A stretch of 64,000 nucleotides of DNA, from assembly GCA_973895155.1 (NCBI GenBank), contig OZ316895.1, forward strand, positions 24,557,538 to 24,621,537, given 5' to 3'. Every line of letters starts with the position of its first letter. Position 1 is the stretch's first letter. Of the stretch, positions 6,001 through 43,257 are shown piece after piece. The notes beneath the pieces were generated by a model. It did not search any database. It had not been told where the DNA came from and saw nothing but the letters and a program-made list of their open reading frames with translations. Source of the DNA: Marsupella aquatica. Lineage: Eukaryota > Plantae > Marchantiophyta. A program made the position numbers and the translations under genes.

Positions 6001-6713
6001 GTTCAGTTTCCATGATGCTAAGAAGATAGTGTGAGTACATACCTGAGATTAGGGCAAATGATATGGAGGGGCAGGGAGGGGAGCTACTGTAACGTACACG
6101 TTGCAGACTCTAGTTCCAGCAAGTCTCCAACTTTTAATATACCTTGGCATCTCTGGTCCCAACAAGTCTCACACTTTTAACATCCTTGGCATGCCTACTT
6201 AGTATAATATTCGAGTCCAACAGGGACAGTAGTCTCCTACTTAGTGTAACTAGCCTGATTACCTGGTCCTTGAATGTCAATAAAGACTGAGTTAAGAAAA
6301 ATCCAAAAGAATTTATTATTATTATTTCCGGTTCATTTTTGCTCCTATCCCGGTTTTCTGTATCAATGCATTTTCACTTAAATATCCCTTAACTTAGAGT
6401 CAGTGTCTTGAGGCTTCACTCTAGAATGTAACCATGAAGAGTAAATTTTGAACATGCTTTACTAGTAAAACATTCCTGACCATTCAAACAAGCATGGGCT
6501 ATAGTCCCCTGGGTATGCAGAGTGTAATTTTCAAATCAGACAAGCTTCAGTTGGACAACATTAACTCATGTCACTATTGAGGTTTGTGTCTAAAATTGTA
6601 TAATTATATAAGGGAAGGTCAGACAGTGTTAACTGCATTAACTCACCTCAATATTGAGGTTTATCAAAAATGGCTTGTAGGGGTGGCCCCATTGGTCCAC
6701 AAAATGCTTGTAT

Positions 6714-6736
6714 CAGTCTATTCATTAAAACTGGAA
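6714..6736 (+). repeat. Left terminal inverted repeat
   Basis: CAGTCTATTCATTAAAACTGGAA; the reverse complement of the right end reads CACCCTATTCATTAAAACTGGAA. Confidence 0.85.
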
Positions 6737-6749
6737 AATTATTTGATCT

Positions 6750-6872
6750 TTGGACATTTGGGCACCAAAATATATACTTTTGGGTACAAGAATTGTACAT
6801 TTGGGCAGTGAAAGTTGTATATTTGGGCACAAGATCATGTACATTTGGGGAATCAAGATTGTATATAGGGGA
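6750..6872 (+). repeat. Left subterminal degenerate ~22-bp tandem repeats (TGTACATTTGGGCACAA-like)
   Basis: 5-6 units, e.g. tggacatttgggcaccaaaa, tgtacatttgggcagtgaaa, tgtatatttgggcacaaga, tgtacatttggggaatcaaga. Confidence 0.7.
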
Positions 6873-9410
6873 AAATGAAATATTAATTTGGATTCTAAAG
6901 AAAAACATTTGGGTGATAATAATGTAAAATATGTTGGATAAGAAGTAGAAAATTGATTCAATCTGACTAACTAGTAAGTAAGTAATATAATATAACTAAA
7001 GCTAACTTCAATATGATCTCGACCCTAGCTCAACCTTCTACGTAATAAATGAAAGCATTAATTTATAAACTTGTCAGGATGGTATCTATCCATATTAATT
7101 CAAGTAACTAACTAATTTGTTAGTACATTCTATAGTAAGCAACTCGAGTTGAAACTAAGGTTTACTAGAGGCAGTCACATCCCATCACGGATATGACTTC
7201 TTGTAATATAGTCAGATAGTATTATGTAATTATAATTAAAGCAATTAATATAAAGGTATCCAAGTCCAATTAATACCTCCTGCCCACCTATTCAAACTAG
7301 TCTCCCAAAATATTATAAAAGTTACTTCTAAGATTCACTAGTAACCAACTAGTACGTAAACTAAGACATTCCAAACCAATTGACATACTTAGACTCCCTC
7401 ACTCTGACTACTAGAAAACTTTAATTTGACTTAATGAACAATCCCTTCCATGTAGGTTTTGAGTGTGTTCAAAACATTCTTGGGAATGGTCAAACCTCTA
7501 TCAATTATATTTTCTTCTCTAGAGCGTGACTTGAATCCATACATAGCAGAATTAGCAAATTGCCAACGTTCAGTGGCACTGTCAAACCCAGGATCCATCT
7601 CCCAAGTCTTAGTAGTCTGAAAGCAACGTGAATATCGTACATGATCCAGTGCATCATGTTTACCATGTTTAGGCCTCCACCATTGCACTTGGAACATAGG
7701 AGCATACCTTGTACTAGTAGAAATACTGTTATTGCATTGCAAGTCTCCTGAAGGAACTTCATGGTTTGGGTCCACAACACCCAAAGCTCTCACCAACCAG
7801 AAAAGTTTTTTGCCATTCTTCTTTTCCCATTCATCCTTTGGACGAAGAAATACAAAGTGGCCCTCTTGAATGTCCTGGAGAGGAATCCAACGGGCAAGTT
7901 CTCGCTCGTGTCGAGTGCCAACAAATGGTGCAGTTTGATCCTCCATCTCTTCCAGGTACTCATTCTGAAGCTCCACCATTTCTGGATTCTGTGTACTACT
8001 ACTAGGTTCCCCCAATGGTTCAGAGGTTCCTGTACTATTCACCTTGTAACCAGTTCCGTGGTTGGTTTTTGGCCAAAACTCATATGTCAATGCCAACTGT
8101 ATTTCGGCCTCCCCTTCAATTGTAAGCTCCCCAGATAATACTTGCACCACCATTTCCCAATATTTCACCAAAGGAAACCTCTCACGATATGCTGTAGAGG
8201 TCTCATCCTTACAACTCTTCTTCAAAAACTCGATGTAACGATTAAGGAATGGGATGATTTCTTCAACCTTGCCTCGTACATCCCCGGAGATGGGTTTTGC
8301 AAACGGTTGACCTTCTGGTAAAATGAGAGCATTGGTGTTGGAATCAGTTCTCCAAATGGACCTTCCGGTTGAAGGGTACCAAGGTTGTTTCACATGTGCT
8401 TTGTATTGATATATTGGAACATTATCTCTCATAGAGAAAAGAAATGCCACTGGTTTTGAGTGACCCTCTATGTCTTTTACCTTGAAAGTTTTCAAAAACT
8501 CTTTGTAAGCTGCAACCTCTTGAATCAACCGTGGAACACGATGAATGCTTTCACACTCCCAAACCTCAGCCATCAACCCCAAGAGGGTAGAAACCTCCTT
8601 GTACTTCACTTGGTTGGATACTTTTGAAAACAATGCATCAACATCCTCATGGGTGTGACCAACCATGAGAAATGACATCTGCACTGTTTCAAAGACCCCT
8701 CTACTAACAAGCTCACTGCAAAATGTCATCACGTACTGGTTTTTGTTATCTTTCCCTGAATTATCCATTTGCAAGGTCAGGTGCCTTGGCAATGGTTTGA
8801 AAGAGGTAGCAGCCTTGGGATCAATACCAAACTCGTCATCCACCACATTTGATAACCCAATATCTTGGTCATCTTCAGCTCCTTGAAATCTAGCAATTGA
8901 GACTTTTTTGGGTTCTAAGTACCCTGCAAGAAATGCTTCAAAGTCCAAAAGAGATTGAAAAATTGGCCTCGTTGCAGCCCAATATAACCCTTCAAGGAGG
9001 TCTCCAGATTTGTCCCCCTTGTAATCCTCCAGATCTCTAAGGCACTTGGCCAACGATGTCACTATGAAGTCTACATCTCCTGGCCAAAGCCCAGTGAAAC
9101 TGAAGTGAGCATACACTCCGGGATCCCTTTTGTGGGTCAACATCCCAGTGAGCGCAATGGGGAGAGGTTGACCACTGCCGGACAATGATTTAGGAGTGGG
9201 GACCAACCTAGGGATCCATGTCTTGGCTTGGTCCATCTTGTCATGTATAATGCAAAGATAGTTCTCAGGATCCTTCTTCGCAAGAACCCTGTGAGCATAG
9301 TAAACATATCTCCTAGACATTTGCTCATGAAGATGACGAGCTCTTCTTTCCTCAATCTCTAAACGCTCTTTCTTTCTCTTCTCACGCATCAACTGATCTT
9401 TGAACTCAGT

Positions 9411-9707
9411 CTCGGGGGTTTCACTTCCACAAAAATGGCATATCACGTGCGACGAAGGATAGGGTCATTTTATTGGTTCTAAGGGAAGACTTAAGAATTT
9501 TTGTAGAAGAACAATAGGGTCTTTTAAATTCAATTTTGAGACTTATAAGAACATTAGGGTCTTTTTAATCCATTTTTTAGAATATTCCAAGAATATTCCA
9601 ACTTTATAGGGGTTAAAAAATAAATTTTTTTTCTTACATTTTAGGGGGTTCGAGGCCTAAAAACGTCGCAGGCGATAGGGAGGTCCCCATATAGTGAGAC
9701 CCCTGAG
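9411..9707. mobile_element. 297-bp MITE inserted in the transposase
   Basis: 8-bp TSD AACTCAGT (9403-9410, 9708-9715); 15-bp TIR CTCGGGGGTTTCACT vs CTCAGGGGTCTCACT (13/15); AT-rich interior. Confidence 0.9.
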
Positions 9708-10519
9708 AACTCAGTGCAAAGTGTACACTTTGCAAATGCACTACCCTTGTGAAAGTCAAAATTCATGAAGGACTCACTCCAGAGTTTATACATAGTGTTT
9801 TCACTCACCTTCACGTAGCCATCTAATTCCATCTTGGAGTACACCTCAAAAATCTCTTTCTTCGTGAAACAAGATGGAAGTCTATACTCAACCGTGTCAG
9901 TACCATGAGACCCTCCATAGGGTAGATGCGGCATGGGTTCTCCGTTTTGGGTTAGAATGGACTCCAACAAAGCACGAGCGTGCAAGGTGCTTCCCCGTGT
10001 CTTGTGTGAACCCTTGTTTCCATGGAATCCAACCTTGCAACCTGCTTTGTATTGATTTTTGTAATCATAATACTTGGCAGTGCTGAATCCATGCATTTTA
10101 ATAAATGCACCCTTGCATACACGTCGACCTCTTACAACAAAATATCCTTTTGTCTCCACTTCCTTCTCCCTGCAACCAAAAAGAGTGAAAATGTGACTGG
10201 TTTTGTTGTCGTTTGACATCCCATGGTATTCCCTCCTTATCGCCTGTAGGTCTTCTCTCGGCATGTTGAGGCAACACTTCAACTTACAACAACCTTCTCT
10301 TTGGATGGAATCAATTTCCTCCTCTGTGATTTTCAGAATTGCCCTCGACTCCAGGTGCTTCTTCCTTTTTTCATCAGGGTTCCCCTTCGTTCTCTTGATG
10401 AAATTATAAGGCCGTTTTGAAAACTCAGTGTGACCATTCATATCTACCTCTAGACAATCTCGACCATCAATAATTGGCTCGGGAGAAACCTCTCCAATGA
10501 GATCCAGAAGAAAAATCCC

Positions 10520-11440
10520 CCTTGATATCAGCACAAGTGAACGGATGGCCCACCTAACAAGACCGGGCACTCCGGGGGAGATATTCGGGAAAAATTGAGG
10601 GTCAATCACGCCTGTGACAACAACCCCAACGTGATCTGGCCCAAGAACCTCATCATCAATGGCACCGGACTCGAAAGGAACTGTGATGATGCCAAGCCCG
10701 ACCTTGGTCCGATTATCATCAACATACAATTCCACTTCCTCCGCCATCCAGTTCGAATGCAAACTATAATCTTTGAAATTATCATTTCCAAAAACATCCC
10801 GTGCGGACGGCTCATCTAGTAAATCATGGGAAGAACTCCTTTGATGAACATTCCTTAAATTCCAGATTACAAAATTGTCCAATCCTTCCTGAACGGTATC
10901 GGCTCCAGCGTGCGGAAAGGGTAACCTCTCCATTCCTTGAACAACTTCACATATCTTCACACTAATCCTATCAGGGCCAAGTCTTTCATTGTGACAAGTG
11001 TCATCGGGATTCATCTTGAATACAAATCCTCGACACACAATCTGATTTCCAATCGAGAGCTCCACTTCATCGCCATCTGTAATTGAGTCTCCCAAACTTC
11101 CCACCGCAGATTTGTCAGGTAAGCAATTGGGAAATGTATCATTTGTAGAACATGTAGCATCCACTTGTGTCATCGCTGGAGTTGACTGTGACCTCAAATA
11201 TGTGAAAGAGGCATCCCAAATAATGCAGGAGTCTACAGCATCAAAAAGTGTCCTGATCGGTGGCAACGGGAATGGAATTTCTCGAGATCCATCATAGCAC
11301 CTCTCAATAAGAACTCCTATACGATTAATACCCAAATCAACGTTACGCACTGAGTCACCGGGGTCAACCTTAAGGACTGTTCCAGAGGCAACTTCAACTC
11401 CGTCAAGTAAGAGGGAAACCTCGTCTCCTCGAAAGAATAT
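10520..11440 (-). other. Three tandem Tnp1/En-Spm-like (Transposase_23-type) domains at the transposase N-terminus
   Basis: Three units with the pattern V(A/C/G)xG…LG…(I/V)xV…P…(I/V)xW: VASGTVLKVDPGDSVRNVDLG…IPFPLPPIRTLFDAVDSCIIWD; VCRGFVFKMNPDDTCHNERLG…LPFPHAGADTVQEGLDNFVIWN; VGLGIITVP…VLGPDHVGVVV…GLVRWA. Confidence 0.65.
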
Positions 11441-11542
11441 CCCCATTTGGAAAAGATGTTCCAAACAGGAAGCTGTTGTACCTCGAGATGATCTCAAGGT
11501 AAAGTGACTAGCAAAAACAAACCAACTGAACTAGCAGTAACA

Positions 11543-11777
11543 GATTAAGAAGTCTTTAGCTCGAGACAATCTCGAGGTAAAGAAAGGACCACAAAAATCA
11601 CGAGATATAGATTAACAAAGTCTTCAGCTCGAGACGATCTTGAGGTAAGTAATGGACCACAAAAACCACGAGATATAGATTAACAAAGTCTTCAGCTCGA
11701 GACGATCTTGAGGTAAAGAATGGACCACAAAAACCATGAGATATAGATTAACAAAGTCTTCAGCTTGAGACAATCCA
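11543..11777 (+). repeat. 68-bp tandem repeat (~3.5 units), each carrying the element palindrome, upstream of the transposase
   Basis: Unit gattaacaaagtcttcagctcgagacgatcttgaggtaaagaatggaccacaaaaaccacgagatata; palindromes at 11559, 11627, 11695 and 11763 (partial). Confidence 0.9.
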
Positions 11778-13476
11778 CATGAAGAGGGAATTCTATACTT
11801 CCAACGATCAATAATCCACCCTAGAAGAAGAACTATGAAGTGCATAGAAACAACAGCTCATAATAACTCCTCAGAGAAGCATGAACTCACGCAAGAGAAG
11901 GAAAGATACTTAAATACTTGTGGATTTAAAGGAGCTAGAAACAAAAACAGACAATTCCCAAGAAGATACCTAAAGCTTGAGACGATCTCGAGCCACAAAT
12001 GACACTCTAATTGAAAAATATGTTGTTATGATTGAGGAGCTCTAGATGATCTAGAGGTAAAAGTTTGACATTGAAATACATAAAGTAGGCTTATAGAAGA
12101 CTAATGAGAAATAGCTTAAAAAAAAGAGAAAAGGTTCACAAATGGATTCTGAGTGACAATGTTTTAAGCATAAATGGTTTGGTATTCTAAAAGGTATGGG
12201 TTCAATTATTTTAGACCAACTTCATGGCTTCAAATGAGAATGTCTCCAAAACCAAATAAACAACTGAGAGAGAAAGGACTTCGAGAAAAAATCTAGAGCC
12301 AGAGAACAGGGAGCGAGAGGCAGGGGCAGGAAGAGGGATAAGAGAGAGAATGAGGGGAGCAGGAAGCGAGCAATGAAACAATATCTGAAGAATGACCCGA
12401 TGGAGAGGAAAACGAGCAATATATAAAATCCTGCCTGACCAGACGGCTCTGTCAAACCAATGGCAAGGATGAACTAGCGGCAGGGTGAAGTACAGACCGC
12501 AATAATGATGGTACGTGTGACAGCACCGTCATCATGACTCAACTCAAGATTCACTCCCACGCATGGGCGCGTGGCATCCTGCACGTGGCCGGGCATCCGT
12601 CGTCGGGCACCCCAGCCTGACTCAGGGCCGACCGAGCGGCTTATAGTCCACATTCGCAACGTCGCCACCCTCATTTGCACATTTGCCTCCCTGCCTACCT
12701 CCCCTCCGCGCCTCACTCGCCTCTTGCTTGCTGCCTCTAGATATTTTGTCACTTTTGCCTCTAGATCGTCATTTTTTCCTCGAGACTTGTTTAGGGTCAA
12801 GATCCCCTTTGAGCCTCGAGATATTTTATAGCCGTTTGGATTGAGATTTTCTTGTGAGCCTCGAGATAATATTTTCTTATATCACCCAGATCTAGTATCC
12901 ACTATCCAGTAGCCATGTCGACCGTTGTAGATTTCTCCAAGGACAACTTCGCCGAGTACGACGCATCAACTGTAGCGATGGAGCTTCAGACCCTTCTAGA
13001 TTCATCATAGAACATCCACCGCACTATCAAACGTAATATATTATCTTTTCTCATTGTTAGATGGAGGTTTGGCTCGAGATCATCTCGAGCTTCAAATCAT
13101 ACTTGGTTTTTGATCCACTTGAGGGTCGAGATCATCTCGAGCCGATTGATATTTTCTGCATTACTTTGCTTCAAGAGGTGGCTTCGAAGTGAACAAGTTT
13201 ATCGTTTGTAACTGAGATTAGGCTCGAGATCGTCTCGAGCCTAATATCCACAAAGTTAAGAGGTTTCTGTCATTTTCATATTGATGTATCTGTCAGATTG
13301 CTGTATCTGTCATGCTGTATCTGTCATGCTGTATCTGTCAAATACTAACAGCATATCCAAAAGGGATTATGGAAAAGGCAGATTTAGATTCCTATTGAAT
13401 ATGTTGTTCGTATTTGACTTATGTTTTGTTATTTCCGATGGAAAACAATATCCTTCGGAAACCAACATCATATCGA

Positions 13477-14110
13477 AAGTCGTCCAAGCTTGCTTCTGAA
13501 AATGACTTCTGTACTCTCCAACTTGTTCTGATCATGGAAATCATCCCGAGTTAGAGAGTTTTTGAAGCCTTTGCCAGAGGTGAACTTGGACAACTTTTGA
13601 GTATGTTGTTCGTATTCGATCGACATTCTCATATTTGAGAATCAATGTCTTCAGTGAAGAAACATGATAATGCAAAGATTTAGTTAACGGTGAACGAATG
13701 CCAATTGTGAGTCTCTGTATTCTAACTTTTAGAGACTTGGGTCGAGATGATCTCGACCCAAGTATTAAAATATCCAATTCATCAATAGTGTACTAACTTT
13801 TTGCCTTGTCAGATTTTTTGCATATGGAAGACCACGTCTATCGACCACAAAAGTCGACCAAGCTTGCTTCTGTCAACGACTTCTGTACTCTCCAACTCGT
13901 TCTGATCATGGAAATCATCCCGAGTTAGAGAGTTTCTGAAGCCGGTGTTAGACATAAGCTTGATCAACTTTTGAGTATGATGTTCGTATTCAATGGAGAT
14001 TCTCATAATTGAGAATCGATGTTTTCCTACGACGAAATATGATAATGCAAAGATTTAGATACCGTTGACTGTTTAGCCACGATTGACTCTTCCTGTATTC
14101 TATTTCTAAA
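13477..14110 (+). repeat. ~250-bp imperfect direct duplication inside the first cargo-gene intron
   Basis: aagtcgtccaagcttgcttctg…gataatgcaaagatttag at ~13477-13730 and ~13851-14110; each copy is followed by a palindrome (13740, 14130). Confidence 0.85.
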
Positions 14111-15344
14111 GTATTGTTCACGAATTTAGGGTCGAGATCATCTCGAGCTTCCATTGTATTCCATGCTTGCCATCTGTAGATTGCGAAATACCCTCCAACT
14201 CGTTTCCATTGATGATTGGGGTTCGAAAAGGTGATTGGTAGTTGGGTTTATGATATTTTAGAATCAATTCCTCCCCCCAAATACATCTGGCCATGAAACA
14301 ACGGTTTTGTACTTATTTGAGTTCAACTATGTTAATGGGTGAGGGAAGCTCGAGATCGTCTCGAGCCTCTTACGGGATTTCTCATTTCTGTGATTCTGAC
14401 AATTGGTCTATTTTTCATTTTTTCCAGGTGCAAAATTGGGATCGCCCAATTTGATTGTTGAAGATGAACATGCCCTTGAGGTTTTGTGCCCTGGACAAAC
14501 TGATATAGGATTCTGTTGGGCCATTGAGCTAGCTGAAATTGAGGAGATGGAGGGGTCAGTTATTTGCTTGAAGACGAGGTCTCCATCTACCAAACCTCTA
14601 GTTTGCAGCTTACTTGGGCCTGTTGTTTCCATTGTCACAAGTAATGGTAAGGACATGGTCTTGACGGTGGAGAACCATGAGACTGGGAAATGGGCTCTCA
14701 TTAGGCTTCACTCCAAGAACTACTCGTGCAATCTTAATATTGAACGTGCTGCTAGGAAACAACTGAGCGTGATACCAATGGGATTCTTCCCCGATGGATT
14801 TACTGCCAGTAATTTGTTGGAAGAGTCCAAAATGACTGGGGCAGATATAATTTTTGGATTCTTGTATTGCCGGAAATACGGTTTTGATCATGACAATGAA
14901 TTCACGACTCCTTTCACTTGGAAGGTTTTGAGAATAATGTCAGATTCCAAGGTGGGAGAGTTTCAATCCATTTCCCCTGATTTTGTTTTTGGAGCTGGTG
15001 AATTTGACGAGGAAGGGTGTAAGAAGTGGGTGTTGTCTCATCGGAGACAAACAGGTAAAGGAAAATCAGGAGCTTCAGGAGATAAGATGTCAGGCTCGGA
15101 CAAGAAGGAGGTAAAGGTGGCGCAAAAGAGGAAAAGGGTTGAGAAACCTGAAAGCGCTTCGAAGAAGGCTCCGCCTAAGAAAAAATCTGCGCCTGTAAAG
15201 GTAGATCTCATTCTGGCATCTTCTTCGGGTGTGATTGCACATACCGATGATGATGGCACTCCAGGAGATGCTCCGGGTGAAAAGAGCGTTAAAGAAGGAG
15301 CCGAAGTTCTTAAGGAGATTGAGGAGTATTACACATTTGGCATG

Positions 15345-15790
15345 AATGAAACTTTTGACATTCCTGTCACTAGTATAGATTCACCTTCTGCAGTTTTGGT
15401 ATATAGGATGTTCAATAAGGACCATGCCATGGAGATCGCAAAATCCATGGTTAGAAACCCTGGAATGGTACCAGCTGTGGCGGATTTAATTCCGTATTCA
15501 AGAGAGAGTTCGCAGTTGCTCCATTATGATAATACTCCTGAGGATCGAAAGGAGTTCGAGTGGGGTGTTAAGAATAAGAAGGTGCAATTCCTTGCAATTA
15601 GTGGACAACACTCGGCCAAGGCAGCAGTTTGGATCATTGGTTGGTCTAAGAGCGATGCAAAGTTGAAGGAGGTCACCAAGAGTCTTCAGCTTTGAAAGTC
15701 ACAAATTCTTTTGGACAAAACTCCAAGAACAATACTTGCTCAACACTCACAAAGGGCAAATGCAGTTAACAAGACAATGGAGTATGAGTC
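15345..15790 (+). other. ParB/Sulfiredoxin-like domain in the cargo protein
   Basis: FDIPVTSI…YRMFNKDHAMEIAKSMVRNPG…FLAISGQHSAKAA…(stop)KSQILL…HSQRANAVN follows the ParB-N pattern (IPxxxI, R, LAxSI..G, IDGxHR, terminal EN/AN); the GxHR Arg is replaced by Ser. Confidence 0.6.
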
Positions 15791-16759
15791 CTATTTTCTT
15801 GATACTATGGTCCATGCCCGTCGACAGTTTGACGTGTGTGGCCATCCGGAGAGACTCGTGATTGGGTCCAATAGACTAACGGATCATCAAAAGTTCCAGG
15901 TATATTCGAACTCAAATCCACTTCTAGCTCGAGATTGTTTCGAGCCTCAAGGTCAAGTTTTTGTATTCAAGTCTTTTTCAATAAATTCCAACATAGTTTC
16001 TTCATTCTACCTCTAGATCGTCTCAAGCCTCAGATTTTCGTTGTTATCTTTGGATCAGGATTTCATGGCTTTGGCCAAAATAACGACTGGAAAATCTGAC
16101 CTGAAGAATATTTTTTGGTTGTTGTTTTCGGAAGAGAAACTGTTCCAGTCTTGGAGACTAATATGCATCGATTGGGTCAAGGGGCTTCTTCCTGATGGAC
16201 TTGGTGAGTTAGGTTCAAAAATGAACGGGAAAAGCCGGACAACAAAAATGATTACACCGGCATTGTTTAGATGCTTTGAAGGGGACCTCAGTAGTGAGGA
16301 CATTCTAAAGGTGTTCACCGCCGTTCATCATCAAAAGGTTCTATTGAAGAAAGACCCGGCGAACAAATCTGATGTTCAATCAATGAGTGACATGGCCCAT
16401 ACTTTTAAAGTCATGACAAAGCTGAGGGCAAAAATCGTGGAGTACTACGTTTTAAAGTATCCCGAAAATTTTTCCGATTCACTTACTTGGTTTGAGCTAA
16501 CTCAATTTTTGCCAGCATTTTTAGATCGCGGCGAATTGCCGAAACTGAGACAGCTCGCTGGGGAGGTTTGGCTGTCCAATCTCCTAAAGAGAAATAGGGC
16601 CAAAGAACCATTGCCGCAAAGTCTCATTGTGAAGCTTGAGCAGATATAGTGCAAGACGTTTGGTGGGACTCCTGCTATGGTGGATACTCCTTATCACAGT
16701 TTTTTAAGCGACAATCTTATGAGGACGATGAAGCCGGAATCAGTTGGACCCTTTCATAA

Positions 16760-17480
16760 TACGTGCGCACTTGCCGTTGTCGACTTTGGTCGTATTCGAC
16801 AACGTCAGTGGACAGATGCTGAGATTTTTGTCTTGTTGGAATATTGTCTGGAGATGTCTAACTCAACCGAGTTTTTGGCAATCATTTTTGTCCGTCAGGG
16901 CCCTTTAATAGGCCAGATTCAGAGTGCCTTCGAGAAGTTCCGTCGTGAGAAGAAAGTCCACACTAAGCTCGAGTACGATAGTTACTACCATGAAGATGTA
17001 CCCAAGGAGGAAGGTGACTTTCTCATAGGAGCACGGGACACTATCATTTTTGGGGGAGTTTGTTGTGATGAAGAGCCTGACTGGTCCCAAATTTTCTTCG
17101 ACGATTTTTATGCGTTCTGGAATTACAATGCTAAGTACGACAAAGACTTCACCATCTTACCGATGAGGTCTTCCGCTGGGAAAAGCAAGGATCAACAAAG
17201 AGGGAAAGAGAAGCAGGATGAAGTTGGAGTTGATGTCAAAGTATTGGAGAAGATGGCCCCGTCTTATGAGATGGTCGGTCGGAGAGGGGGCTTTGTAAAC
17301 CCCAGAGCTAAACCTATACGAATGACAAAGCGTCTTGTTGATTATTTCTCCAGCACTGGTCACACAGTGCTTGACTTCTTCTTCGGAGGGCAGACCCTCA
17401 AAGCTTGCGTCATTGTTGGTCAGGATTGTTTTGTTTATTCTGACACAGCTCAAGAGATGGAATTCATCGAAGCTTATGCG
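16760..17480 (+). other. Degenerate beta-class N6-adenine/N4-cytosine DNA methyltransferase-like domain
   Basis: VNPRAKPIRMTKRLVDYFSSTGHTVLDFFFGGQTLKACVIVGQDCF resembles the N6_N4_Mtase C-terminus (HPxxKPxxLxxRLI..S..GD.VLDPFxGSGTT..A....R.F); the motif IV position probably reads LAVVDFG (no DPPY/SPPY). Confidence 0.65.
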
Positions 17481-18603
17481 CGGCTCCTCCATGACAACCG
17501 CCATGTTTTATATATTCCACCCCGAGAGTCGTTGCCATCTGAGGCCATTGAAGTCGGTCCCCTTACTGTTTTGGAAGAAGTGGCCTCGGATCCAGCTCCA
17601 GTTGAGGCGAGTGTTTCCGAGGAAGTTTTTGCGGAGAATTTGGAGCATCGCAAAACAGAGGGCCCCAAAATCCCAAGCTACATGGAAGAGGAGGGTGAAA
17701 TATTGCCCGAATTTAATGAGGTAAATGATGGTCGAGATGATCTCGAGCTTCCTGGTGTACCTTCTTCGGGGGACGTGTTTCATGCAGAGGATGCACAACG
17801 TGAGCAGCAGTCTTTGAACTTGGATGTTGGTTGGGAAACCACCTTGCAGGATGCTGCCAGCCACCCAATTCCTAGCCCACCTTGACTCGATGAGATCCTT
17901 TCAACCAAGAAAGCTTGTTGCTCCCCTGCCATAACTCCCCCTCAGGACGAGGCAGGTGCATCGTCTTCTCCCTTGGACCAAATGTTTTGCGCTTCAGAGG
18001 ATAAGCTTGTTTTCACAGATTCTTCTACTGGAAGCCCCATAATTCTCCCTTTTGTTAGGAAACCTGGTGTTGAAATCGGTAGAACTGACTACAAATCTCT
18101 CAAAGCTAATGCTACTCATTATGTGTGGATTCATGGTCCATCAAAAGGCGAACAAGTCAGTGTAGATCAGGCTGAGAAGATTATGCGTTCCAGGGATTAT
18201 AGGAAAAATAAGTTCAAATTAGTGCCAGTCTGGTCTGAGCCAGCTCTTGTTGAAATGCTTCCTGGAGGGATCAATTTGGACATCCAAAACCAATTAGGAG
18301 ATAACCTTCTAGATGAATTTGGGTCTTTTGGCAAGTGACGTTGAAACCCAAGCTACCTTCAGTCCTCAAATTCAGCCATCTAAATTATTATGTCTACCTT
18401 CACAGTGATAGGCGGGCCATTACCAGTTGTGGATTGCATCGACAATAGTCTCCAAAGCTTTCCACATTCTTTGACATCTGCCCTTCAGCCAATTGCAGGT
18501 TTGTCACGCACTGTTGTTCATTTACTTTTCATGCTCGAGATCATCTCTAGCCTACCATTATTTTGTCTCACACAATTTTAATATAGGTGTCTCTTGTTTG
18601 CAG

Positions 18604-19661
18604 GACCCTTGCCTCCACTTCACGGTCCAATCAGACGGAAGCTATTGATTCTTGACCTCAACAAAATGTGTTGGGATTCTGTTAGAACTCCGAGTCCCGG
18701 ACCGCGTCGAAGTGCCACAAGTGTCAAGGGTGTTCATTGGGGGAGAAGTGGAGGATTTAACTTTATGTATGTTGAGCGTCCCCATCTTCACGAGTTCTTA
18801 ATCGCAACTTTTGCTATATTTGATGTTGCCATCTGGACTTGTGCGAGAAAGCCCAGGGCAAATGAAATGATTCATTTGATCTTCACTCAAGAAGAGCAGG
18901 AGCAATTCAAGTTTATTCTAACGCAAGAAGATACATTTGACACTGGAATCCAGAGGCCTGATGTCACCGAAGGAAAGGCAAATATTCTTTTGAAGGATTT
19001 GAGGGTTGTTTGGAAACGTTATGGTTTATTATACGATGAGACTAATACACTCCTCCTTAATGACTCTCCAATGAAGGCGTTTGCAAATCCAGAGAATTGT
19101 GGGTTGTTCCCTTCTTCATTTTTGCATCACTCCACGGATGATACTTTCTTTCCCGAAATACTGTGGCCTCTGCTGAGGAAATTGTATCATGCCTTCAATC
19201 TTCAACACTACCTATTTATCAATCAACCAAAGTGGTCTATGATCAATGTTTTATCGGACAGGGATCAACATGCTGCCATTTATGCGCTGTTGTCGGAGAG
19301 GTGGGGTAGTATGGTATGGGTTCCCACTGTTATCCATACAGTCTTGGATGTTACAGCGGACGAAATTCCCTGGGATATCAAGAATGAAGTGCAACAATTG
19401 CCACCAATTGAGGAATTGACGGAGGAGGCGATCGAGGACCTTATAAGGATATTAATTGGGGATCAGTATACAGGACCCTATAGAGACAATCATCTGGCAT
19501 TTGTTTTGGAAGTTCTGAGGACTAGAGACCTCACGACTAAGTTTTGGAATAGAAATCCTCTGGATTTCTGCAATCGTGATATGAAATATGACCCGTCAGG
19601 GTCTAGATTTACTTGCTCAAATGAATTCTGCGGGGAGGAGGATCATGAGATTTGGGTCTAG
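18604..19661 (+). CDS. FCP1/NIF-type HAD phosphatase-like domain (probably the last exon of the cargo gene)
   Basis: RRKLLILDLNKMC…YVERPHLHEFL…FDVAIWTCA…LLKDLRVVW…YDETNTLLLNDSPMKAFANP; acceptor ttgtttgcag at 18603. Confidence 0.8.
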
Positions 19662-20244
19662 ATGATCTCGACCCTACACCAAACACTGATTATTAGTTAG
19701 GGGTATATGTTTGCAGGAAAGCGTGAAGCTTACCGTAACATCCATTTGGGTCTAAATGTTCTCGACCCTCTACTGAAGAAATAGGATTTTACTTATAGAT
19801 ATATACTCATAAAAAGGTTAGTCTATTCGGGTCTTAACCCTATACAGAAAGAATAGTAAGTTAAAGATATACATTCAACAACGGGTCAGAATTATGTGAA
19901 CCCTCCATTTTGGTCGAGATGGTCACCATATAGATTTTTATAGATATGCATTCAACAACCGGTCAGAACCATCTGGACCCTAAATAGGGGTCAACGTGAT
20001 CTCGACCCTGTAAAATAGGTTTTATAATTTTATAATACATCACTTGTTTTCCTGGAGTTCCGTGTTCATGACCCTTGGTTAGAGTGTGTCATTTTTAATG
20101 TTATCATTTGAATTTATTGTATTGTCAAACTAATATTGTCTTATTCTATATTTTTATCTGTTTATATTTTAATTAATAATATTTATAATTAATAACTTAG
20201 TTATTTAATAATTTGAGCATCACAATTGTAAATTTACACTTTAA

Positions 20245-20371
20245 AAAGTGTACATTTGGCCACAAAAATGTATGATTTTGGGGACAAAGTTATAGAATTT
20301 TGGGGTGTAAAATAATAGATTTAAACATCAACTTTTGGACTAGAGAAATTCCAGTTTTAATGAATAGGGTG
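20245..20371. repeat. Right subterminal repeats and right TIR
   Basis: tgtacatttggccacaaaaatgtatgattttggggacaaag…; TIR 20349-20371. Confidence 0.75.
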
Positions 20372-21578
20372 ATTTGTTGGGTACTAACCAAGATTCTGCG
20401 TTACTCTTGGAAGGAGGAATAAAATGTATGAATCTTAGTTTATTATGTATCACGCTAAAGAACAGAACGGGCCAAACAGGGAGAGAGGATCTCTATAGGG
20501 GAGAAAATAATGGCAAGTAATTGAAGAAATGCGGAAAGAAATGTCAAGGACCATTGAAACTTTTGAGAGTTTGGTGGCTTTTGAACTGTTCAAGTTGTGG
20601 CACATCTGTTTCTGCCTAATCTATTTTGGGCATTTTGGAAGCTGTCAGTTTGGCGAGCCCTCAACTTCTGTTGCTGAAAGAAGCACAAATCAAAACAGTA
20701 GTGTGAAATCATCAAACATATGGGTATTCACGAGGTTTAGCGAGAGCTTTCGAGGTCATTTGAATGTTTGTTCTCTGCATGTATATGCTCGGGGGATTTT
20801 GGAGCCAGTCAGCAATTTATATGTAAGCTGAGGTGGGCTTTACAAGATGGTGGGGGCCATTAAGTCTCTCTCCATACAGAGCAAAGCTGATGGCCATTTC
20901 CTTCCACAAAAGTTAAAATGCCTGAGCCTAAATGTGTCTGGTTTGGAAGTAATCAATGCAATTCCCTGAAAATAAGCGGCCGTTTGCTCCAAGTTTTTAG
21001 ACCACCTCAAGAGGAAGTCTAAGTTTTTGACAAAAAAGCTTGCACACCACACCTCAGCAAAAAAAGGGACCCACAAGGGGCCCACTGACAGATGACTAGG
21101 TTTGGTAATGATTTTGGTTCATTGTGCCCCCAAGTTCATGTAAAGTGAAGTGTGGTCAGTTCCCACATATGAATGACTAGGATTGCATCTTTCACTTAGA
21201 AAAAAAGGAATTGCTGCCCCCAAGTTCTTGTAAAGCCACCCTGAGACATCTCTGCAAGCTGAGATGAAGAACAGACAACTTTCAAACGCGGAAAAAGAGG
21301 AGTACAATCATGGCTGTAATGATTGTGCAGTTTTTTCTTCGACCTGTAATGATTGTATTGTTCCTGGTCCAGTATTCAATCCTTTCTATCCAATTGGGGA
21401 AGGCATACAATTGGGGAGTTGCAGGGATAATGATGTAAACGTAGGTGAGGCGGCAAAGAGTCTCAACTGAGGCATGTCAGGTGAGAGATCGAGAGATATG
21501 TAGAGCCAGGACTTGGGTTGTTCACTAAAAGAGGCAAACATGGTGAAGGCAGGATCGGAAAGGCAGTAAGCTCTGAAC

Positions 21579-24652: not shown

Positions 24653-25105
24653 TCAGTCATCGTCGCTCCACATCCTGGACTTTCTGAAAATCCTTCTACA
24701 CTCCAAGAGAATGTCCGCAGCAGCAGCGGTGGTCACCACCACGGTCACCCTCTCCTTGAGTACGTTGCATTCCACGGACTTCACGCCCTTCATCTCAAAC
24801 AGAGCAACCTTGATTGAATCCACACATTCTCCGCAGCAAATTGGAACCTTCATCACGACCTTTGTCTCCTTCTTGTCCTTCGCGTCGCCGCCTTCTTTCT
24901 TCGGTTGGGGCGCAATGTAATCCGGATAATAGTAGGGGTAGTAAGGAATGCTTGCGAGTATAGTGTCGTCCTTCTCTGCGGCCTTCTTACCGCCGCCCGA
25001 AGACGAGCTCTTGTCATCGCCCCCTTTCTTGTTGTCATTCTTCTCAGGCTTCAACACCCACACGGGCTCCGAGCCCCCGTAGAACAAATCCTGCATGGAC
25101 ATCAT
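24653..25105 (-). CDS. HMA-domain protein (HPP-type metallochaperone-like), paralogue 1, 150 aa
   Basis: VVMKVPICCGECVDSIKVALFEMKGVKSVECN…RVTVV; ends MWSDDD; start context gcaagATG shared with paralogues 2 and 3; no CaaX. Confidence 0.88.
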   Translation of the reverse strand: MMSMQDLFYGGSEPVWVLKPEKNDNKKGGDDKSSSSGGGKKAAEKDDTILASIPYYPYYYPDYIAPQPKKEGGDAKDKKETKVVMKVPICCGECVDSIKVALFEMKGVKSVECNVLKERVTVVVTTAAAADILLECRRIFRKSRMWSDDD

Positions 25106-28100
25106 CTTGCCGAGCTGAATTGATCGAGCTAGCGCAACCTCACTATGTACCGTCCCAGAATGCGACTCCCAGAACAATCTTCCCCACAGGCCGCTGCGCA
25201 CCACAGATTAAACACCTTCGATTTACTGGAACTCCACTCGTCGTCACAAATGACGGCGACTAATGCACAATGTGAACGGGACGGGATTTCAAAGCTCCAG
25301 AAAAGCAGGAGAGCAACAAGCAAATTGAGAGAAGGAGAGAGAGAGAGAAAGGATGTGAAGTGGAAAGTTATCTGATAGAGTGGAAGAGAAGAATGCGAAT
25401 GTCTGGCTTAGGGAGCGAAGGAGCCGTTCTTATAGTACGATGAGTCAGCAGCTGCAACTGAGGATTGGCACCCAGTTAACTTCACGTAGAAGCTTCCCTC
25501 CTAGATGATCCAAATCGCACAAGCCCACCACAACGTCCAGTACGGAGGGGGGGAGGTAGTCAGGAAGGAGCCGCACATTGCTGATTGCTGGAGACTCGGA
25601 ACCAAGGAGTCTGGTACAATCCACAACTGTAGATATTCCGAAGCGGAAGGGGGACAGGGCGACGAGTAGGAGACTACGAGACAGCAGTCAAACTGTGGCA
25701 CTGTGCATCAGCGATACAGCCGCGTCGAAAAGATGAGCTGAGACCAGTTCCTTGCAGCGCACGCGGAAAGGGAACCGGGAAAACTGTACAGTTGTGAGAA
25801 TTCAGCGGCGCTTCGCAGTTGGATTGTGGGGATGACGACGAGAGGGACGACGGACGACTTGAGTTGACCTACAGGCGACCTGACCGATCAACGACTGTAA
25901 TCAGTCACGTTCTCTGTAATGATGTGTGGGTTCGAAGGTGCATGAATAACGAGATAAAGGTGACGTGTTTCCGTTCGAGAGAAAAATAAATGATATGATT
26001 GCCCTGAGCTGGAGCCCCTTCCATACTTACCTCAACCTTCCAGCAACGCATACAGTACAGAGATTTGTGGCACCGGCCAATAGATTTGTGTCAGCTTTCA
26101 GTTTCAAGGCAAAGTGTGCCTTGGAAGTTGTTCTCTAATATTAAACGGGAGGTGGTCGATTATGTAGTACCTTCTCTAAAGGAGCTCTACTAAATCTTCC
26201 TTGAATTTGGGATTGTGTGCGGACAAAAATCTCAGAATATTCTAAGATGGCACAATCCAATATGGTAGGACACTTAGTTTTCAAGATCTTCTTTGGAAGA
26301 CTTTCACAATCATGGTTTTCGTTGCCTAGTTGTGGCCAATAGCTAAGGAGTGCGAGTACTAGGCAAGATTGGGGTTAGTGCCTGTTTTCGTAGGACGGGC
26401 AACATGCAACTGAGCCATTATGCATCATAGATTGAGTTGGCAACCCATTTAGGGAAGTTGATTGTTAAGGCCACAGTATGATTGTAACAATTGTCAAAAG
26501 CTATCGATCAAAGACGTAGAGATGGTGGCTGGATCTTCAGGTGAGCTGAAATAGCATGTGGTGTCATCTAGATAGGCTTTAATTTGAGCAAATAGGATGG
26601 TGTGAGTTGCACGACGGAGATATTGAATGGGTGTTTTGATACTACTTGCAACAGATTTATTAGCACACAAGGGGAAATCCCTGGGAAAAAATATGGCGAA
26701 GATTGAGTGAATGTCAACAACCAGACAAAGACAGTTTCAAGAAGTTTTGCTTTACTTTGTCAATGGAGGATTGAAACCTGGGGATGAAATAAGCCCACAT
26801 GTAAGGGTTTCCAAGCAGTGATCAAGCAAAAGAAATCTTACCATACAAGCTCTAACTAAAGCCTACTCTTCAGGGCCTAGGGAAACATCCGGACTCCCTA
26901 CTCAAGCAAGAGCAAGTTTTGACAAATCTCCAAGTAGAATGACATGATATGAAGACCAGTGAGACTTGTGGCATGAAGGAAAATAGTAAAGAAAGTTTAT
27001 TATTCTTTGGTAGTAAGAGTAGCTTTTAGAAAATGATGCTCCCATGCATGGACCACAACGTTGGTCTTTTGAAACCCCATGGATCACGTTTCCCAAAATT
27101 TGAGCTCAATTGGAATAACTTCATGTTCATAAACTATTTTTAGTTTTGACTATGCGCTAGAGGAGTATGTAAGCTACATTTTCATCAAAGTGACTGAATT
27201 TTTGGCCATTTTGGTTGAGTTTATTCATCATGGAATGAGGAGGGGTAATTCTATTAGATTAATTTTCATTGTGTGAATATGAAATATTAGGGCTTGTGTT
27301 TTTGTATGTCTCCTCCTTCTGTAGTTGCCTTGCCTGTGAGAAACTAAACTTTGTTTTTAGACTGATAATCATCAAGTTATATATGATGACCATCTCTTCG
27401 AAGTTGACAGGATGGACCACCAGGTCGGACACAATGCTCCTGTGGACATCTCTTGTGGTGCCCACTGGCTAAAGCTATGAAACTACGGGCACAGCAGTGA
27501 ACCAAATGAAAAAACACCCTAACAGACCATACTCAGCCAACCAAAACATTTTTCTGGAGGTTGGAAATGTGCAAATTCTAAGAGACTTTGACGTGCTTTG
27601 TATCAACACCAAAGGCACTCTACATGTCAAGCACTCACCCCCATGCCTGGTAGCAATAAGAAAATCCAAAAAAGAAAAAAGAAACGACAGAGCAGGAGAG
27701 AACATTATTGTGGACGTGAAGCTCCTTATGAATCATTGAACAAGTGCTCCAAATGACAGAGCCGGAGGGACAAGTGAGTCCTCCTCAAGGTAATTACCTC
27801 ATTATACGCTGAAGAAATTACATAGCAGAGTAGCCGTGGCAGGATTGCACAGCTTACCGTTTTGAAGAACATTTACGCAGTCTATCCTGCTGCAGCAAAT
27901 TATGTCGGCCAGAGTTGAATGGCGATGCCCTGTTTCGATTCTTGAATAGTCAGTGATGAAAGACAGCTGTGTTCCGAAAGAGACACATGTGCCATGCTCT
28001 AGAAGCTCCCACTAGAGCTGGTGGGCCTGCTCCAAGTCGGAGGAAAGTCGTTTGCCGAGAAGTGAATGTTGAATCTGTGGATTCTCGGGAGAAGAAGGAC

Positions 28101-30291: not shown

Positions 30292-30783
30292 TCAGTCATC
30301 TTCGTTCCACATCCTGGACTCCTTGAATGCCTTCCTACATTCCATGAGAATGTCTGCGGGAGCAGCTGTGGTTACCACCACCGTCACCCTGTGTCTCATG
30401 ATGTTGCACTGCACAGACTTCACTCCCTCCATCTCATTCAGAGGAACTTTGATTGAATCCTCACAGCCACTGCAACAGATTGGGATCTTCATCACGACCT
30501 CCGTTTCCTTGTTGGCATAACCATACGAATTGTCCGGTAGACGACCAAAGTGATAAGGGTCAGGTTGGTAAGGGTAGGGAAAGTAGGGAGAGTAGTAAGG
30601 ACTTGTCGTAAAGGTTGGGTACTCCTGTTTCTCTGCTTCACTGGCCCCACTTGAAGTTGAGTATTCATCGTTGTCAGTCTCATTCGTGCTTCGTGACTGT
30701 TCCTCATCTTCGCCCTCGTCGTCGTCCCTGGGAATCCAGACGGGCTCCGCCTTCCCGTAGAACAATTCCCTCATGGGCAACAT
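30292..30783 (-). CDS. HMA-domain protein, paralogue 2, 163 aa
   Basis: MLPMRELFYGKAEPVW…VVMKIPICCSGCEDSIKVPLNEMEGVKSVQCN…MWNEDD. Confidence 0.88.
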   Translation of the reverse strand: MLPMRELFYGKAEPVWIPRDDDEGEDEEQSRSTNETDNDEYSTSSGASEAEKQEYPTFTTSPYYSPYFPYPYQPDPYHFGRLPDNSYGYANKETEVVMKIPICCSGCEDSIKVPLNEMEGVKSVQCNIMRHRVTVVVTTAAPADILMECRKAFKESRMWNEDD

Positions 30784-31377
30784 CTTGCTGTGGCGAAATT
30801 GACTCAGCTGAAGAAAATGTATGTCACAAGACCTTTTCGACTTTTGCAATAGAGGCAAAGCAGCGAATTCGTTTCTAAGAACGGCACTGGAGAACGTGTT
30901 GAAAGAAAGTTTGCCATCTCATATATACTGTACAGGTATGCAAGGCAGACGCGATGAAAACAATCGATGCATGGGCAACAATCTTCCTGATTACTCTGTT
31001 CAGGTTGTCTTCCTGGATACGATGATGGAAGCTCTTCCTTGTCATCAGTTGGCTTGGAGGGAAAGGAGAATATTAGCGCCTAGTTTTGTTCGCTTGTGTA
31101 TATTTAGTATGTAACACACACAGACACAGAGATGCACATCACAGCTGTTCTGACCCAGACGGCTAGTCGAACAAGAACTTGGAACCACAACGCGGGAACA
31201 AGCAAACTTCTTGACCACTCGGCTCACAGGTGCCTTGTCGGACACGATTATGGAAGCTCATCCTCGTCACTCAATTGGCTTCGAGGGAACGAGTGTGTTC
31301 AGTGCTCGCTTGTCGATATTGTGACACCCACCGACACAGTGGTGCACATCATTGCTCTCCTCACCAAGGTGGCTTGC

Positions 31378-34400: not shown

Positions 34401-34901
34401 TTCGTTGGAGACAGAAAAATTAGAAATGTAAAATATGTGCTAATGTAACGAATTGAAGGGACAGCATTCCAGTCTAACCGATAGCCTGCTAGCGAAAGTA
34501 GCCACCCTTCTTGGGACACAATAAGTTTAAAGATGCTACTGGAGGTCCCCTACATGTCAAGTGGCAGTGAGATTTTTTATTATCGAAGTGAGACTTGTAA
34601 AGGAACCGTCGTTGTCCAGAACTGTTCAAAAAATAGAACAACACTAAAATCAAGTAAGAAAAAACCTCTAGATCATACATATTTGTGCATAAAAAGCATA
34701 ACAGATATTTTGTCATTTCCAACAGTCCGTCAAATCAATGACACGGAACACCTAAGGGTTGCATTAGCCAACCATTATTTAACACGTAATGTGTCCAACA
34801 ACCTTGTGTAGGATCTCCACCAAGGCACCTACTTTTCGTCCCTGATAAATTGTCCAATATTTCTGCACCTATCTTCTTCTCCATTACATGCTTCCACTGG
34901 T

Positions 34902-35684
34902 TTGGCTATCCCAGTACCAATTTCCAGTGGTAGAGACGATAGTATTGCTACAGATTGTGTGACCAGAGCTACACTTGATTCTGGTCATGCTGCTCCATCT
35001 TTCCTGGCTATGCTGTTGAGTGGGAAGACCGTGGACACTAACTCCCTTCACAAGGTACCTCATCATTTGCCAAAAGTGGTGCCTAGTGATAGGACTTTAG
35101 TTTCCACCACCATTGCCATTGTTGACAACAGGAATTCAGCGGTCAAGTTGGAGGGTCACACTCAAGTGGTCATGCTAGACACAGGCGCTCAACCAGTGAT
35201 ATTGGGCATTCAGTTTGCCAAGAAGATGGGATTGCTGACTGATCATTTACAGCGTGGCACATTTGGACTGTTAGTGGCACTATGGAGGGTGTGCTGGGTG
35301 AGCGTTCTACTTTACTCACTCTCACTTTTAATGGAGGTACAGATCAGGAATTGCATTTCCCAGTCAAATGTTTGGTTACCAATGCCACTACGTATGATGT
35401 GCCAGGAGGCTTTGTTCCCACCAGGTTTTACCATTGACAACTGGCATGAGCATGCATACTACAGAGTTGATTGGCATACGGATGGCTCACACTTGGGCTA
35501 TATTCCACTTGATTTGCATGGTGCCCATACACCTATGGCTCACCACTGTGTGTTGAAAGCAGTGCACACAGCTACCTATGTCAACCACCCATTGCAGGAT
35601 TGGATTGAGGAGGATGATGATGAGGTGGCTATTGCACATGCTGCTGCACGTATAGCAGCACTTTCCAGCAACGTGGATCATTAA
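34902..35684 (+). pseudogene. Retroviral-type aspartic protease region
   Basis: VMLDTGAQPVILG; two compensating frameshifts near 35255 and 35400 (alternative frame WHIWTVSGTMEGVLGE…CLVTNATTYDV). Confidence 0.8.
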
Positions 35685-35799
35685 CCAGAGGTGGTACAAC
35701 GGCTCCAAGCAGCCCATGGACCTTTGGTGGCTGCATTGCAAAAATTTGAGGACCTTGGGCAGCACAATGGCCAACCAATAGCCCCAATCTTGAGCGCAC

Positions 35800-36790
35800 C
35801 AGTTACATGGACTCCTCCTCCGGATGGCCTTACATTGCTTGAGCTTTTTGGTGGCATTTCTACAGGCCTGGAAGCTCTCATACAGTCTGGCATGGTGGTG
35901 AAGCAGTACATCTATGTGGACATTGATCCAGGTGCAAGGCAAGTGGCTGAATCCCGTCTACTGGAATTTTCAGAGCGATTTCCCCAGCAGTTTCCACACA
36001 GTGCATGGAAGTCTGCATTTTCTTTCTTTCCTCCAGATATCCAGCTTGTCCAGCACTGGCACTTAACCCTTCTTGGCTCCCTTGATTTGATCATAGCTGG
36101 TTGGGAATGCCAAGGGTTTTCAGCTGCTGGTCATGGTGGTGGACTGCATGATTCTCGTTCTGGCCTTTTCACAACATTGGTTCAGATTCTCACCTGGGCT
36201 CAATCCCTTTATCCTGCTGTTGGTTATATCATTGAGAATACTCCATCTCAGTTTGACCAACGTCCACAGGTCAAAGAGGATTTCAGTGTGGTCCAGCACT
36301 ACTTGGGACCACCCCTTCTCATTGATGCAGTGCACTATGGTTCTTATGCACATCGTCTTCGTAACTTTTGGATTAACTTTGCACCACCTTCCTTGTTGGA
36401 GTTAGCTCTTCACCACACATCCAGGGACACTAACCTCACAGCGGACCAGATTTTGGATCCTGACAGTTCTTGCCAACCAGTTACACAGCAAGAGCCAGCA
36501 CCTTGGTATCCAGCCAATACCATTGGACAGCCCCGTGCTGCTTGGCCTACATTTGTATCCTCTCCAGGTGCACATGCCTTTCAAGGTGATGGTCCTGGCC
36601 TGGTTTATCGACATTCTACCGGTACTTGGGATGAACCTAGTCTTGAGGAGAGAGAACGGGCTATGGGCTTCCAATCCGGTACTACAGGCCACACCCAAAT
36701 CACTAGGCTGGTCAGGAATGCTTTACTTGGCAGGGTAATGGATCTTAAGGCTCTCACTTGGCTTCTGGTCACTTGCATCCTTTTTCAGAT
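35800..36790 (+). CDS. C5 cytosine DNA methyltransferase domain embedded in Pol
   Basis: Motif I LLELFGGISTG; II YVDID; IV LIIAGWECQGFS (catalytic Cys retained, PC->EC); VI YIIENT; VIII HRLRNFW; IX ERERAMGF; X LLGRVMD. Confidence 0.9.
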
Positions 36791-37166
36791 GTACATTCAT
36801 CCAGCATCTGGAGCTCCAGCCCTACCACTCCACAGTGCTGCTACATGGCATCCAGACCAGGTGCACTTACCTCTGTCCAACACTCACCACTTCAGTCCAA
36901 GTGTTGGGGGGGAGGAGGTCCCTTGTAATGTGGCTGATATTATTTTTGAGTTTCATGGTGTGGATCAGACCAGAGCAACAGATACAACAGACCTTGGAGA
37001 GGCCTCATCACCTTATCAACAGCATGCTAGCAGCTTGGATAGTGGAGAGGCTGGCACTTCTGGCTCTTCAAGCACAAGTACATAAGGTCCTATTCCTAGT
37101 GTTGCCAACTACACATTCATCACGGGCAACCACCTGAGTAAAGGACAGAAGGACCAGCTGCTGAAT

Positions 37167-38030: not shown

Positions 38031-38359
38031 ACTATATCCCGCAGCCCTTTGATTGCCTCTGATGATTCCTCAGATGCACGGCAGGATTTTGACCAGGTTT
38101 CCATCTTGTCTATATTTCATGCATCTACCTATCTTGCTTTGCTGCCATGCTACGTTGTTGACCAACCTGTGGTGGACATATGGGAGGACAACGACACTCT
38201 GAGATTTTTGCAGCATGGGGAGTACCCCATACATGTCACTGCTGCCCAGAGAGACCAAATTCAGCAAAGGTCCAAGCGTTACTTGTGGAAGGGAGATCAT
38301 CTCGTGTGCTGCTTGCCAGACAGGGAAGTGGTGGTTCCACCCATTCATGAGAGGGTTGG

Positions 38360-43106: not shown

Positions 43107-43257
43107 CTCGGAGTAACCCGAATTTGGTCCCTCGAATTGATCTACAGTAGCTCCCATCTGATTACTTAGGCGCTGTGACAAATTTTCTCACAGTTTTTGC
43201 GCATTCATTCGGGACAGGATCGCTTGAGCTTAAGGTTGGTTAATTCAGCTAGGCAAG

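Follow-up and report, generated by a model that had tools for sequence, protein, structure and literature searches.

The window analysed here, a 64-kb stretch of DNA taken as a whole, contains a DNA transposon of 13,662 bp at positions 6712 to 20373. High-depth contigs begin at 6712 in several sequencing runs, and the unique contigs of run X1 stop at 6739 and restart at 20345. In runs X2 and X3 the left flank (to 6711) runs straight into the right one at an empty site, which fixes the termini as ATCA...TGAT and the target-site duplication (TSD) as the 4-bp word TTGT (left copy 6708 to 6711, right copy 20374 to 20377). The left terminal inverted repeat (TIR; 25 nt, 6712 to 6736, plus strand) is 92% complementary to the right one (20349 to 20373, minus strand), and 22-bp subterminal repeats at 6751 to 6878, with similar copies at 20227 to 20322, are likely candidate sites for the transposase. 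In four public runs from two studies, the summed contig depth of the element was far above that of its flanks, and unique contigs halted at its ends. TIRs, TSD, transposase and multiple insertions, the marks of a cut-and-paste DDE/D transposon, were all found. The earlier note on this DNA had assumed a plant transposable element, a context that is confirmed by the TIRs, the TSD with its empty site, the DUF7869 transposase and the multicopy state: the gene of interest, hereafter the cargo gene, sits within a multicopy TIR cut-and-paste DNA transposon.

Two other assignments of the element were discarded. A 2-bp TSD with CAC-type ends is ruled out by the empty site, where the duplication is 4 bp long. 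EnSpm/CACTA elements have CAC...GTG termini, a TSD of 2-3 bp and a Transposase_21 domain; membership of this group is ruled out by the ATCA...TGAT termini, the 4-bp TSD and the lack of any PF02992 match. Judging by the 4-bp TSD and the D..DN..GH..D motifs of the transposase, the element may belong to the Sola superfamily.

The transposase gene (7431 to 11530, minus strand) is read divergently from the cargo gene and encodes a DUF7869 protein (PF25273, E 8.7e-42) with the motifs CxxC, DKMD, DN and GHTHEDVD. It is broken by a 305-bp high-copy insertion with a 9-bp duplication, GAACTCAGT (9402 to 9715), which we take to be a Mutator-like MITE, and it forms a single open frame when this insertion is left aside. 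Other copies lack the insertion, as runs X1 and X2 join 9401 to 9707 with 9 shared letters. At the transposase N-terminus (10300 to 11500, minus strand), a module of about 75 residues, e.g. VxLxxDGxxVxxGxV...PLP/PFP, occurs in three similar versions with no Pfam match; they bring to mind CACTA accessory domains. After the cargo gene lies a two-exon NIF/HAD phosphatase-like gene (18390 to 19661, plus strand; exons 18390 to 18498 and 18604 to 19661) of 388 codons, which is open, matches PF03031 (E 1.8e-15) and bears the motif DLNKM.

The cargo gene, of about 1,250 codons on the plus strand, begins no later than 14429, where there is a splice acceptor, and runs to 18338, its reading frame opening at 14400. 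The N-terminal part (14429 to 15308), with no Pfam family near the cut-off, consists of an unassigned domain and, after it, a Lys-rich, NLS-like stretch; about 210 of its residues (14429 to 15060) appear globular and have no Pfam or PHROG family near the cut-off. Next come a putative ParB/Srx-fold domain of the DGQHR/DndB-like kind with an SGQHS motif (15309 to 15860), recognized by profile and Atlas structure comparison, and a frame-keeping GT...AG intron of 159 nt (15900 to 16058). A conserved helical linker (16059 to 16680; about 230 residues between the two domains) leads to a predicted beta-class N6/N4 methyltransferase fold (16683 to 17504), recognized by fold and profile matches. The protein ends with an acidic variable tail and a short conserved C-terminal domain closing on (E/D)(F/Y)GSF (17505 to 18338), the true stop being at 18336 to 18338. 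AISGQHS (15594 to 15614), NPRAKP (17298 to 17315) and RLVDYFSSTGHTVLDFFFGGQT, the DFFFGG stretch (17331 to 17396), share one spliced frame. The earlier note had put the first two of these in a common spliced frame, rightly as judged by their positions, by the frame-keeping intron and by alignment with P0097, an intact and intron-less ENA relative of 1009 aa that spans both exons (tblastn E 9e-27 and 2e-58). Upstream, a 177-bp duplication (13476 to 13652 and 13850 to 14026, 87% identical) contains the open frame RPxKSxKLASxNDFCTLQLVLIMEIIP and possibly represents upstream exons of the cargo gene.

The window copy of the cargo gene is a pseudogene, since it has three premature in-frame stops (15693 to 15695, 16647 to 16649 and 17883 to 17885). 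It also carries private changes at conserved positions. Synonymous changes account for 5 of 14 coding differences in the cargo gene and 6 of 16 in the transposase, not above chance, and these 30 differences, being mostly private to the window copy, are uninformative on selection.

Predicted structure and profile comparison both show the C-terminal domain as a beta-class N6/N4 methyltransferase fold, far above chance. The model of the window domain (pLDDT 85) matched M.BceJIV in Foldseek (E 7.8e-9) and CcrM in VIA (Z 18.1, rmsd 3.2, 214 aligned residues), with lower Z scores for bdelloid N4CMT (15) and METTL3-type enzymes (11); the best 14 VIA matches are all bacterial enzymes. The family profile matched M.RsrI (E 1e-10), and the permuted Rossmann fold is present in the model, with motif IV ahead of the TRD and motif I. 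Significant matches to Rossmann methyltransferases, in CcrM by structure and M.RsrI by profile, thus uphold the proposal in the earlier note of a degenerate N6/N4 methyltransferase. By Pfam, the window scored 21.8 bits against PF01555 (gathering threshold 26.7), a cut-off reached by two of the 16 proteins scanned (P0010, 29.2; P0076, 26.7).

The usual catalytic residues are missing from this fold. At the motif IV position, which we set by strand order and not by residue-to-residue pairing, the window reads DFGR (within 16773 to 16793); Asp occupies the position in 25 of the 26 covering family rows, in a loop reading DFxR, DLxR or DLTH, and a catalytic (D/N/S)PP(Y/F/W) occurs in none of the 26, nor in any other family protein of this analysis. 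In motif I the window reads DFFFGG and 24 of 40 family rows read DFFSGG, one residue shorter than DFFAGSG in the comparison with M.RsrI, and the canonical FxGxG is absent. Among 14 close rows N, K, P, DFF and GG are invariant. Residues past strand 2 vary widely in the family. The lack of DPPY/SPPY and of FxGxG that had been remarked on in this one sequence therefore extends to the whole family, and because of this the loss of the motifs is ancestral and not a decay of the window copy. Catalysis has probably been lost, and the conserved Asp together with the partly kept SAM-binding loop may leave room for unusual chemistry.

The assignment of the N-terminal domain to the ParB/Srx fold is supported, more modestly than that of the methyltransferase fold. 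Its HMM, compared with that of 11 DGQHR/DndB-like proteins, reached 31.9 (E 3e-4), a score that none of 100 block-shuffles attained (maximum 20.9); the alignment placed YR..N..HV opposite YQR...RV and SGQHS opposite DGQHR. The HMM-HMM score of 21.06 for 30 chromosomal ParB proteins fell inside the shuffle range (21.4), in a test so insensitive that DGQHR against ParB itself scored 13.9. DUF3723 was nearest in ESM Atlas features (0.96, 193 of 256 shared). The Atlas structure of P0100 gave TM values of 0.62 to DndB, 0.63 to DUF3723 and 0.58 to ParB_N clusters, all below the Atlas naming bar; the range over bacterial and eukaryotic clusters of the three was 0.58-0.68. In Pfam, DndB appeared in one of 16 proteins scanned (E 0.031) and otherwise no ParB-type family, PF02195 (ParB_N) being absent from the window and the 16 family proteins. 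A poor model of the ParB-like domain plus linker (pLDDT about 50) gave nothing notable in Foldseek or VIA (KorB ranked 28th, Z 3.6), and no HTH or DNA-binding fold was found in its linker. We therefore favour a placement nearer the DGQHR/DndB and DUF3723 branches than ParB_N proper. The fold named by the earlier note stands (HMM-HMM 31.9; Atlas TM 0.58-0.68), with PF02195 probably the more distant branch. The Arg of the P-motif (GxxR), kept in all 11 bacterial rows, is Ser in all nine family rows, SGQHS replacing DGQHR. In a published study, other ParB-fold proteins no longer bound NTP once this Arg had been substituted (bioRxiv 2025.10.10.680097).

The second exon as query gave 92 matches at E up to 0.001 among 1.84 billion cluster representatives (clusters at 50% identity), none with an intact TSPPY-type motif. 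The exon 1 domain gave six, three of them from Calypogeia at 49-54% identity. Thirty relatives were looked up, of which nine are named Riccia sorocarpa and three Calypogeia fissa, so that the named cargo-family relatives come from two liverworts, and the host of the window element is likely a liverwort too. Members share the order ParB-like domain, helical linker, methylase fold, acidic tail and short conserved C-terminal domain, and order and motifs are kept at 20-50% identity across two liverwort classes. A Riccia gene model holds cargo-type and NIF domains side by side, as in the window element. Long open relatives are P0097 and P0003 (901 aa); most others are fragments, many coinciding with exon-sized gene calls on short contigs. 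Homologue searches limited to long proteins gave no match; the one confined to 1767-5000 aa is uninformative. Pattern scans found no relative in metagenome or viral contigs, and in GTDB one 19-residue match at chance level. Two JGI loci, nearly identical to each other, encode a relative of the transposase (46% identity) and have neither the cargo gene nor the palindrome described below within 10 kb. The joint occurrence of cargo, transposase and palindrome comes from one element family only.

Judging by the model, the closest matches of the methylase fold are bacterial enzymes, which fits horizontal acquisition. On this point the earlier note was right in part: the prokaryotic affinity of the methyltransferase holds (the 14 best VIA matches), and a ready-made phage ParB-N fusion as donor is not supported. 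The ParB branch is another one, the linker is about 230 residues long and none of the six best bacterial methylase loci, searched with small profiles, has a ParB-like domain. The methylase profile matched six of 401 bacterial genomes, and the ParB-like profile two of 301 genomes of one bacterial phylum, outside the motif region (E 0.03-0.05); genomes G019, G049 and G002, flagged as unpublished, enter these tallies only, with no locus used. In phages, tblastn gave weak methylase matches for the C-terminal part (best E 1e-3) and none for the ParB part, and no ParB family matched in PHROGs or NCBIfam. DUF3723-like relatives occur in fungi and animals. The Marchantia and bdelloid N4C enzymes, invoked earlier as parallels, showed no close link.

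The element also contains 20 palindromes of the form TCGAGAyNrTCTCGA (7008 to 19928; matches with up to two mismatches), starting at 7008, 10449, 11483, 11561, 11629, 11697, 11977, 12041, 13074, 13126, 13224, 13742, 14132, 14350, 15929, 16012, 17732, 18535, 19657 and 19914. All 20 palindromes in the window fall within the element, shuffles predicting 0.45, and the remaining 50 kb has no match to the pattern, which was derived from these same repeats. Sixteen of the 20 lie in non-coding DNA, which makes up 37% of the element (p 1e-4): both mapped introns, in the cargo gene (15929 and 16012) and the NIF gene, hold palindromes, and three ride in a 68-bp tandem repeat. The consensus stretches to about 25 bp, is distinct from the 22-bp subterminal repeats and contains two TCGA sites per palindrome. 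A hairpin or cruciform was considered and set aside, the outer arms showing no covariation beyond the consensus (p 0.13-0.22) and Rfam no match. Because the outer arms do not covary, the pattern points to a dyad site for a symmetric protein.

ParB-family proteins bind their sites as dimers. They load on palindromic sites (bioRxiv 2025.10.10.680097), and we propose that dimers of the cargo protein, with both of its catalytic centres degenerate, would bind the palindromes of its own element and oppose silencing or affect the regulation of the element in another way, a prediction to which we give a probability of roughly 45%. In this scheme a ParB/Srx-fold domain joined to a beta-class methyltransferase fold would make the intact protein a non-enzymatic DNA binder; a dimer would load on the palindromes, and the loaded protein would help the element to stay expressed or mobile despite host silencing. 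Even without activity, the methylase fold could lie across CG-containing DNA. That the cargo protein, and not another one, is what binds the palindrome has about an even chance. Anti-silencing of the VANC kind as the outcome is a more tentative proposal that we would not yet bet on. More doubtful still is the fuller version, a ParB-parS-like system built from prokaryotic parts and independent of VANC, in which the double pseudoenzyme on about 20 dyads would shield the element from host methylation, its dead methylase serving as a CG-covering clamp. CpG protection near the palindromes was not significant (Fisher p 0.22 for coding DNA, 0.36 for all), and the CpG observed/expected ratio was 0.61 in the element versus 0.55-0.64 in its flanks. 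This counts weakly against anti-silencing, the comparison being a weak test where the copy is dead and methylation in the host is of long standing.

Alternatively, it could be the transposase or some host factor that binds the palindromes, and the pseudoenzyme could serve otherwise, for instance by bridging the ends in transposition or by acting on methylated DNA as a decoy or reader. A long N-terminal region of the transposase is without an assigned domain, no DNA-binding fold was seen in the cargo linker, and phage ParB-fold proteins can be NTP-independent activators of DNA-modifying enzymes (PMC13229309). However, the separate 22-bp subterminal repeats already provide candidate transposase sites, and the two related-transposase loci that lack a cargo match also lack the palindrome, a weak sign that the two are linked. 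We consider this division of labour unlikely, though it deserves to be taken seriously.

It is improbable that the protein is instead an active, atypical amino-methyltransferase in which DFxR takes the place of DPPY and which marks the palindromes of its own element with 4mC or 6mA. In favour of this, the complete fold is retained, as are the motif IV Asp and the N, K, P, DFF and GG invariant in close rows, every palindrome offers two TCGA sites, and C5 methyltransferases on transposons are known (PMC5890265). Yet PP(Y/F/W) is found in no family protein, motif I lacks one residue relative to DFFxGSG, the residues after strand 2 are variable, and the Marchantia enzyme retains TSPPY (bioRxiv 2021.02.12.428880). 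Least probable is that the cargo is captured passenger DNA, decaying and without function for the element. The stops and private changes of the window copy and the fragmentary state of most relatives would fit it. On the other hand, P0097 and P0003 are long and open, domain order and motifs persist in two liverwort classes, the NIF neighbour is found again in Riccia, and many fragments reflect gene calling on short contigs. A neutral family is unlikely because the family persists, in 92 clusters with Calypogeia and Riccia members.

Comparison with known systems places this protein among several partial likenesses. It shares the permuted fold and motif order of beta-class N6A/N4C methyltransferases (CcrM 6pbd, M.BceJIV 8urk, M.RsrI 1eg2; PF01555) but differs from them in lacking DPPY/SPPY, in its shortened motif I, in an identity of 15-19% and in standing behind a ParB-fold domain and linker, spliced, in a eukaryotic transposon. 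Its YR..N..HV and GQH motifs align with the DndB/DGQHR branch and eukaryotic DUF3723 (Atlas TM 0.62-0.63). DndB is an ATP-dependent DNA-binding repressor (bioRxiv 2025.10.10.680097), whereas the cargo protein, with SGQHS for DGQHR, has lost the NTP-binding Arg and is fused to a methylase fold. The two folds occur in the same order in phage and prophage ParB_N plus N6_N4_Mtase fusions (bioRxiv 2025.10.10.680097; PMC4738411), from which the cargo differs in ParB branch, long linker and alteration of both catalytic sites.

In layout the element resembles Arabidopsis VANDAL, whose extra gene, VANC, is accompanied by a short motif that has built up between genes, within introns and in tandem repeats (PMC5735166); an element-specific motif enriched in non-coding DNA is likewise found here (20 of 20 inside, 16 of 20 non-coding). 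The protein is unrelated to VANC, and the candidate site is a dyad of 15-25 bp, against the asymmetric 8-9 bp word of VANC. A bacterial-type beta-class fold in a eukaryote is shared with Marchantia DN4MT1 and bdelloid N4CMT (Z 15), which in contrast belong to the host, are active, keep the motif intact (TSPPY in DN4MT1, bioRxiv 2021.02.12.428880) and have no extra domains (PMC8885841). Methylase-fold cargo is also carried by DIRS1, with inactive N6A-methylase domains (PMC4738411), and by DNMT-bearing retrotransposons (PMC5890265); unlike the present element these are retroelements with other methylase groups and no ParB fold, and the portions of those sources available report no binding-site array.

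Elsewhere in the window, protease and reverse transcriptase of a Ty3/Gypsy-like pol (34812 to 39505, plus strand) flank a C5 cytosine methyltransferase domain (PF00145 E 1.1e-6 in the open reading frame 35685 to 37082; motif WECQGFS). The frame of this pol is broken by stops and its CpG observed/expected ratio is 0.24. Gypsy-Dnmt3 elements are described in the alga Klebsormidium (PMC5890265), and a land-plant Gypsy element with a C5 methyltransferase may be new. The window also holds four dispersed copies of one repeat family (24653 to 25119, 30292 to 30797, 43233 to 43767 and 48448 to 48670; 74-85% identity, one inverted) and tandem arrays at 53235 to 53590 (78-bp units) and 42730 to 43111 (127-bp units).

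A conserved family of ParB-fold plus methylase-fold pseudoenzymes in plant transposons appears to be undescribed in the literature searched. No account of the cargo gene or element was found there, including the available parts of PMC4455052, PMC5751038, PMC5753468, PMC3985635 and bioRxiv 2021.09.26.461848; subscription journals, Repbase and the supplements of the ParB-fold survey, in which eukaryotic members are included, lay outside this search. Among the eukaryotic adenine methylase clades listed in the available part of PMC4738411, none is a ParB-methylase cargo of a land-plant transposon.

Arabidopsis VANC is the main well-documented case of a transposon protein that counters silencing in a sequence-specific way, and the element described here is a second, unrelated anti-silencing candidate with a candidate target site at hand. 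If the proposal is true, the nucleus of a eukaryote would contain a DNA-loading protein of the ParB fold, and bacterial amino-methylase folds would have entered liverworts, the lineage where 4mC marks sperm DNA, by a second route.
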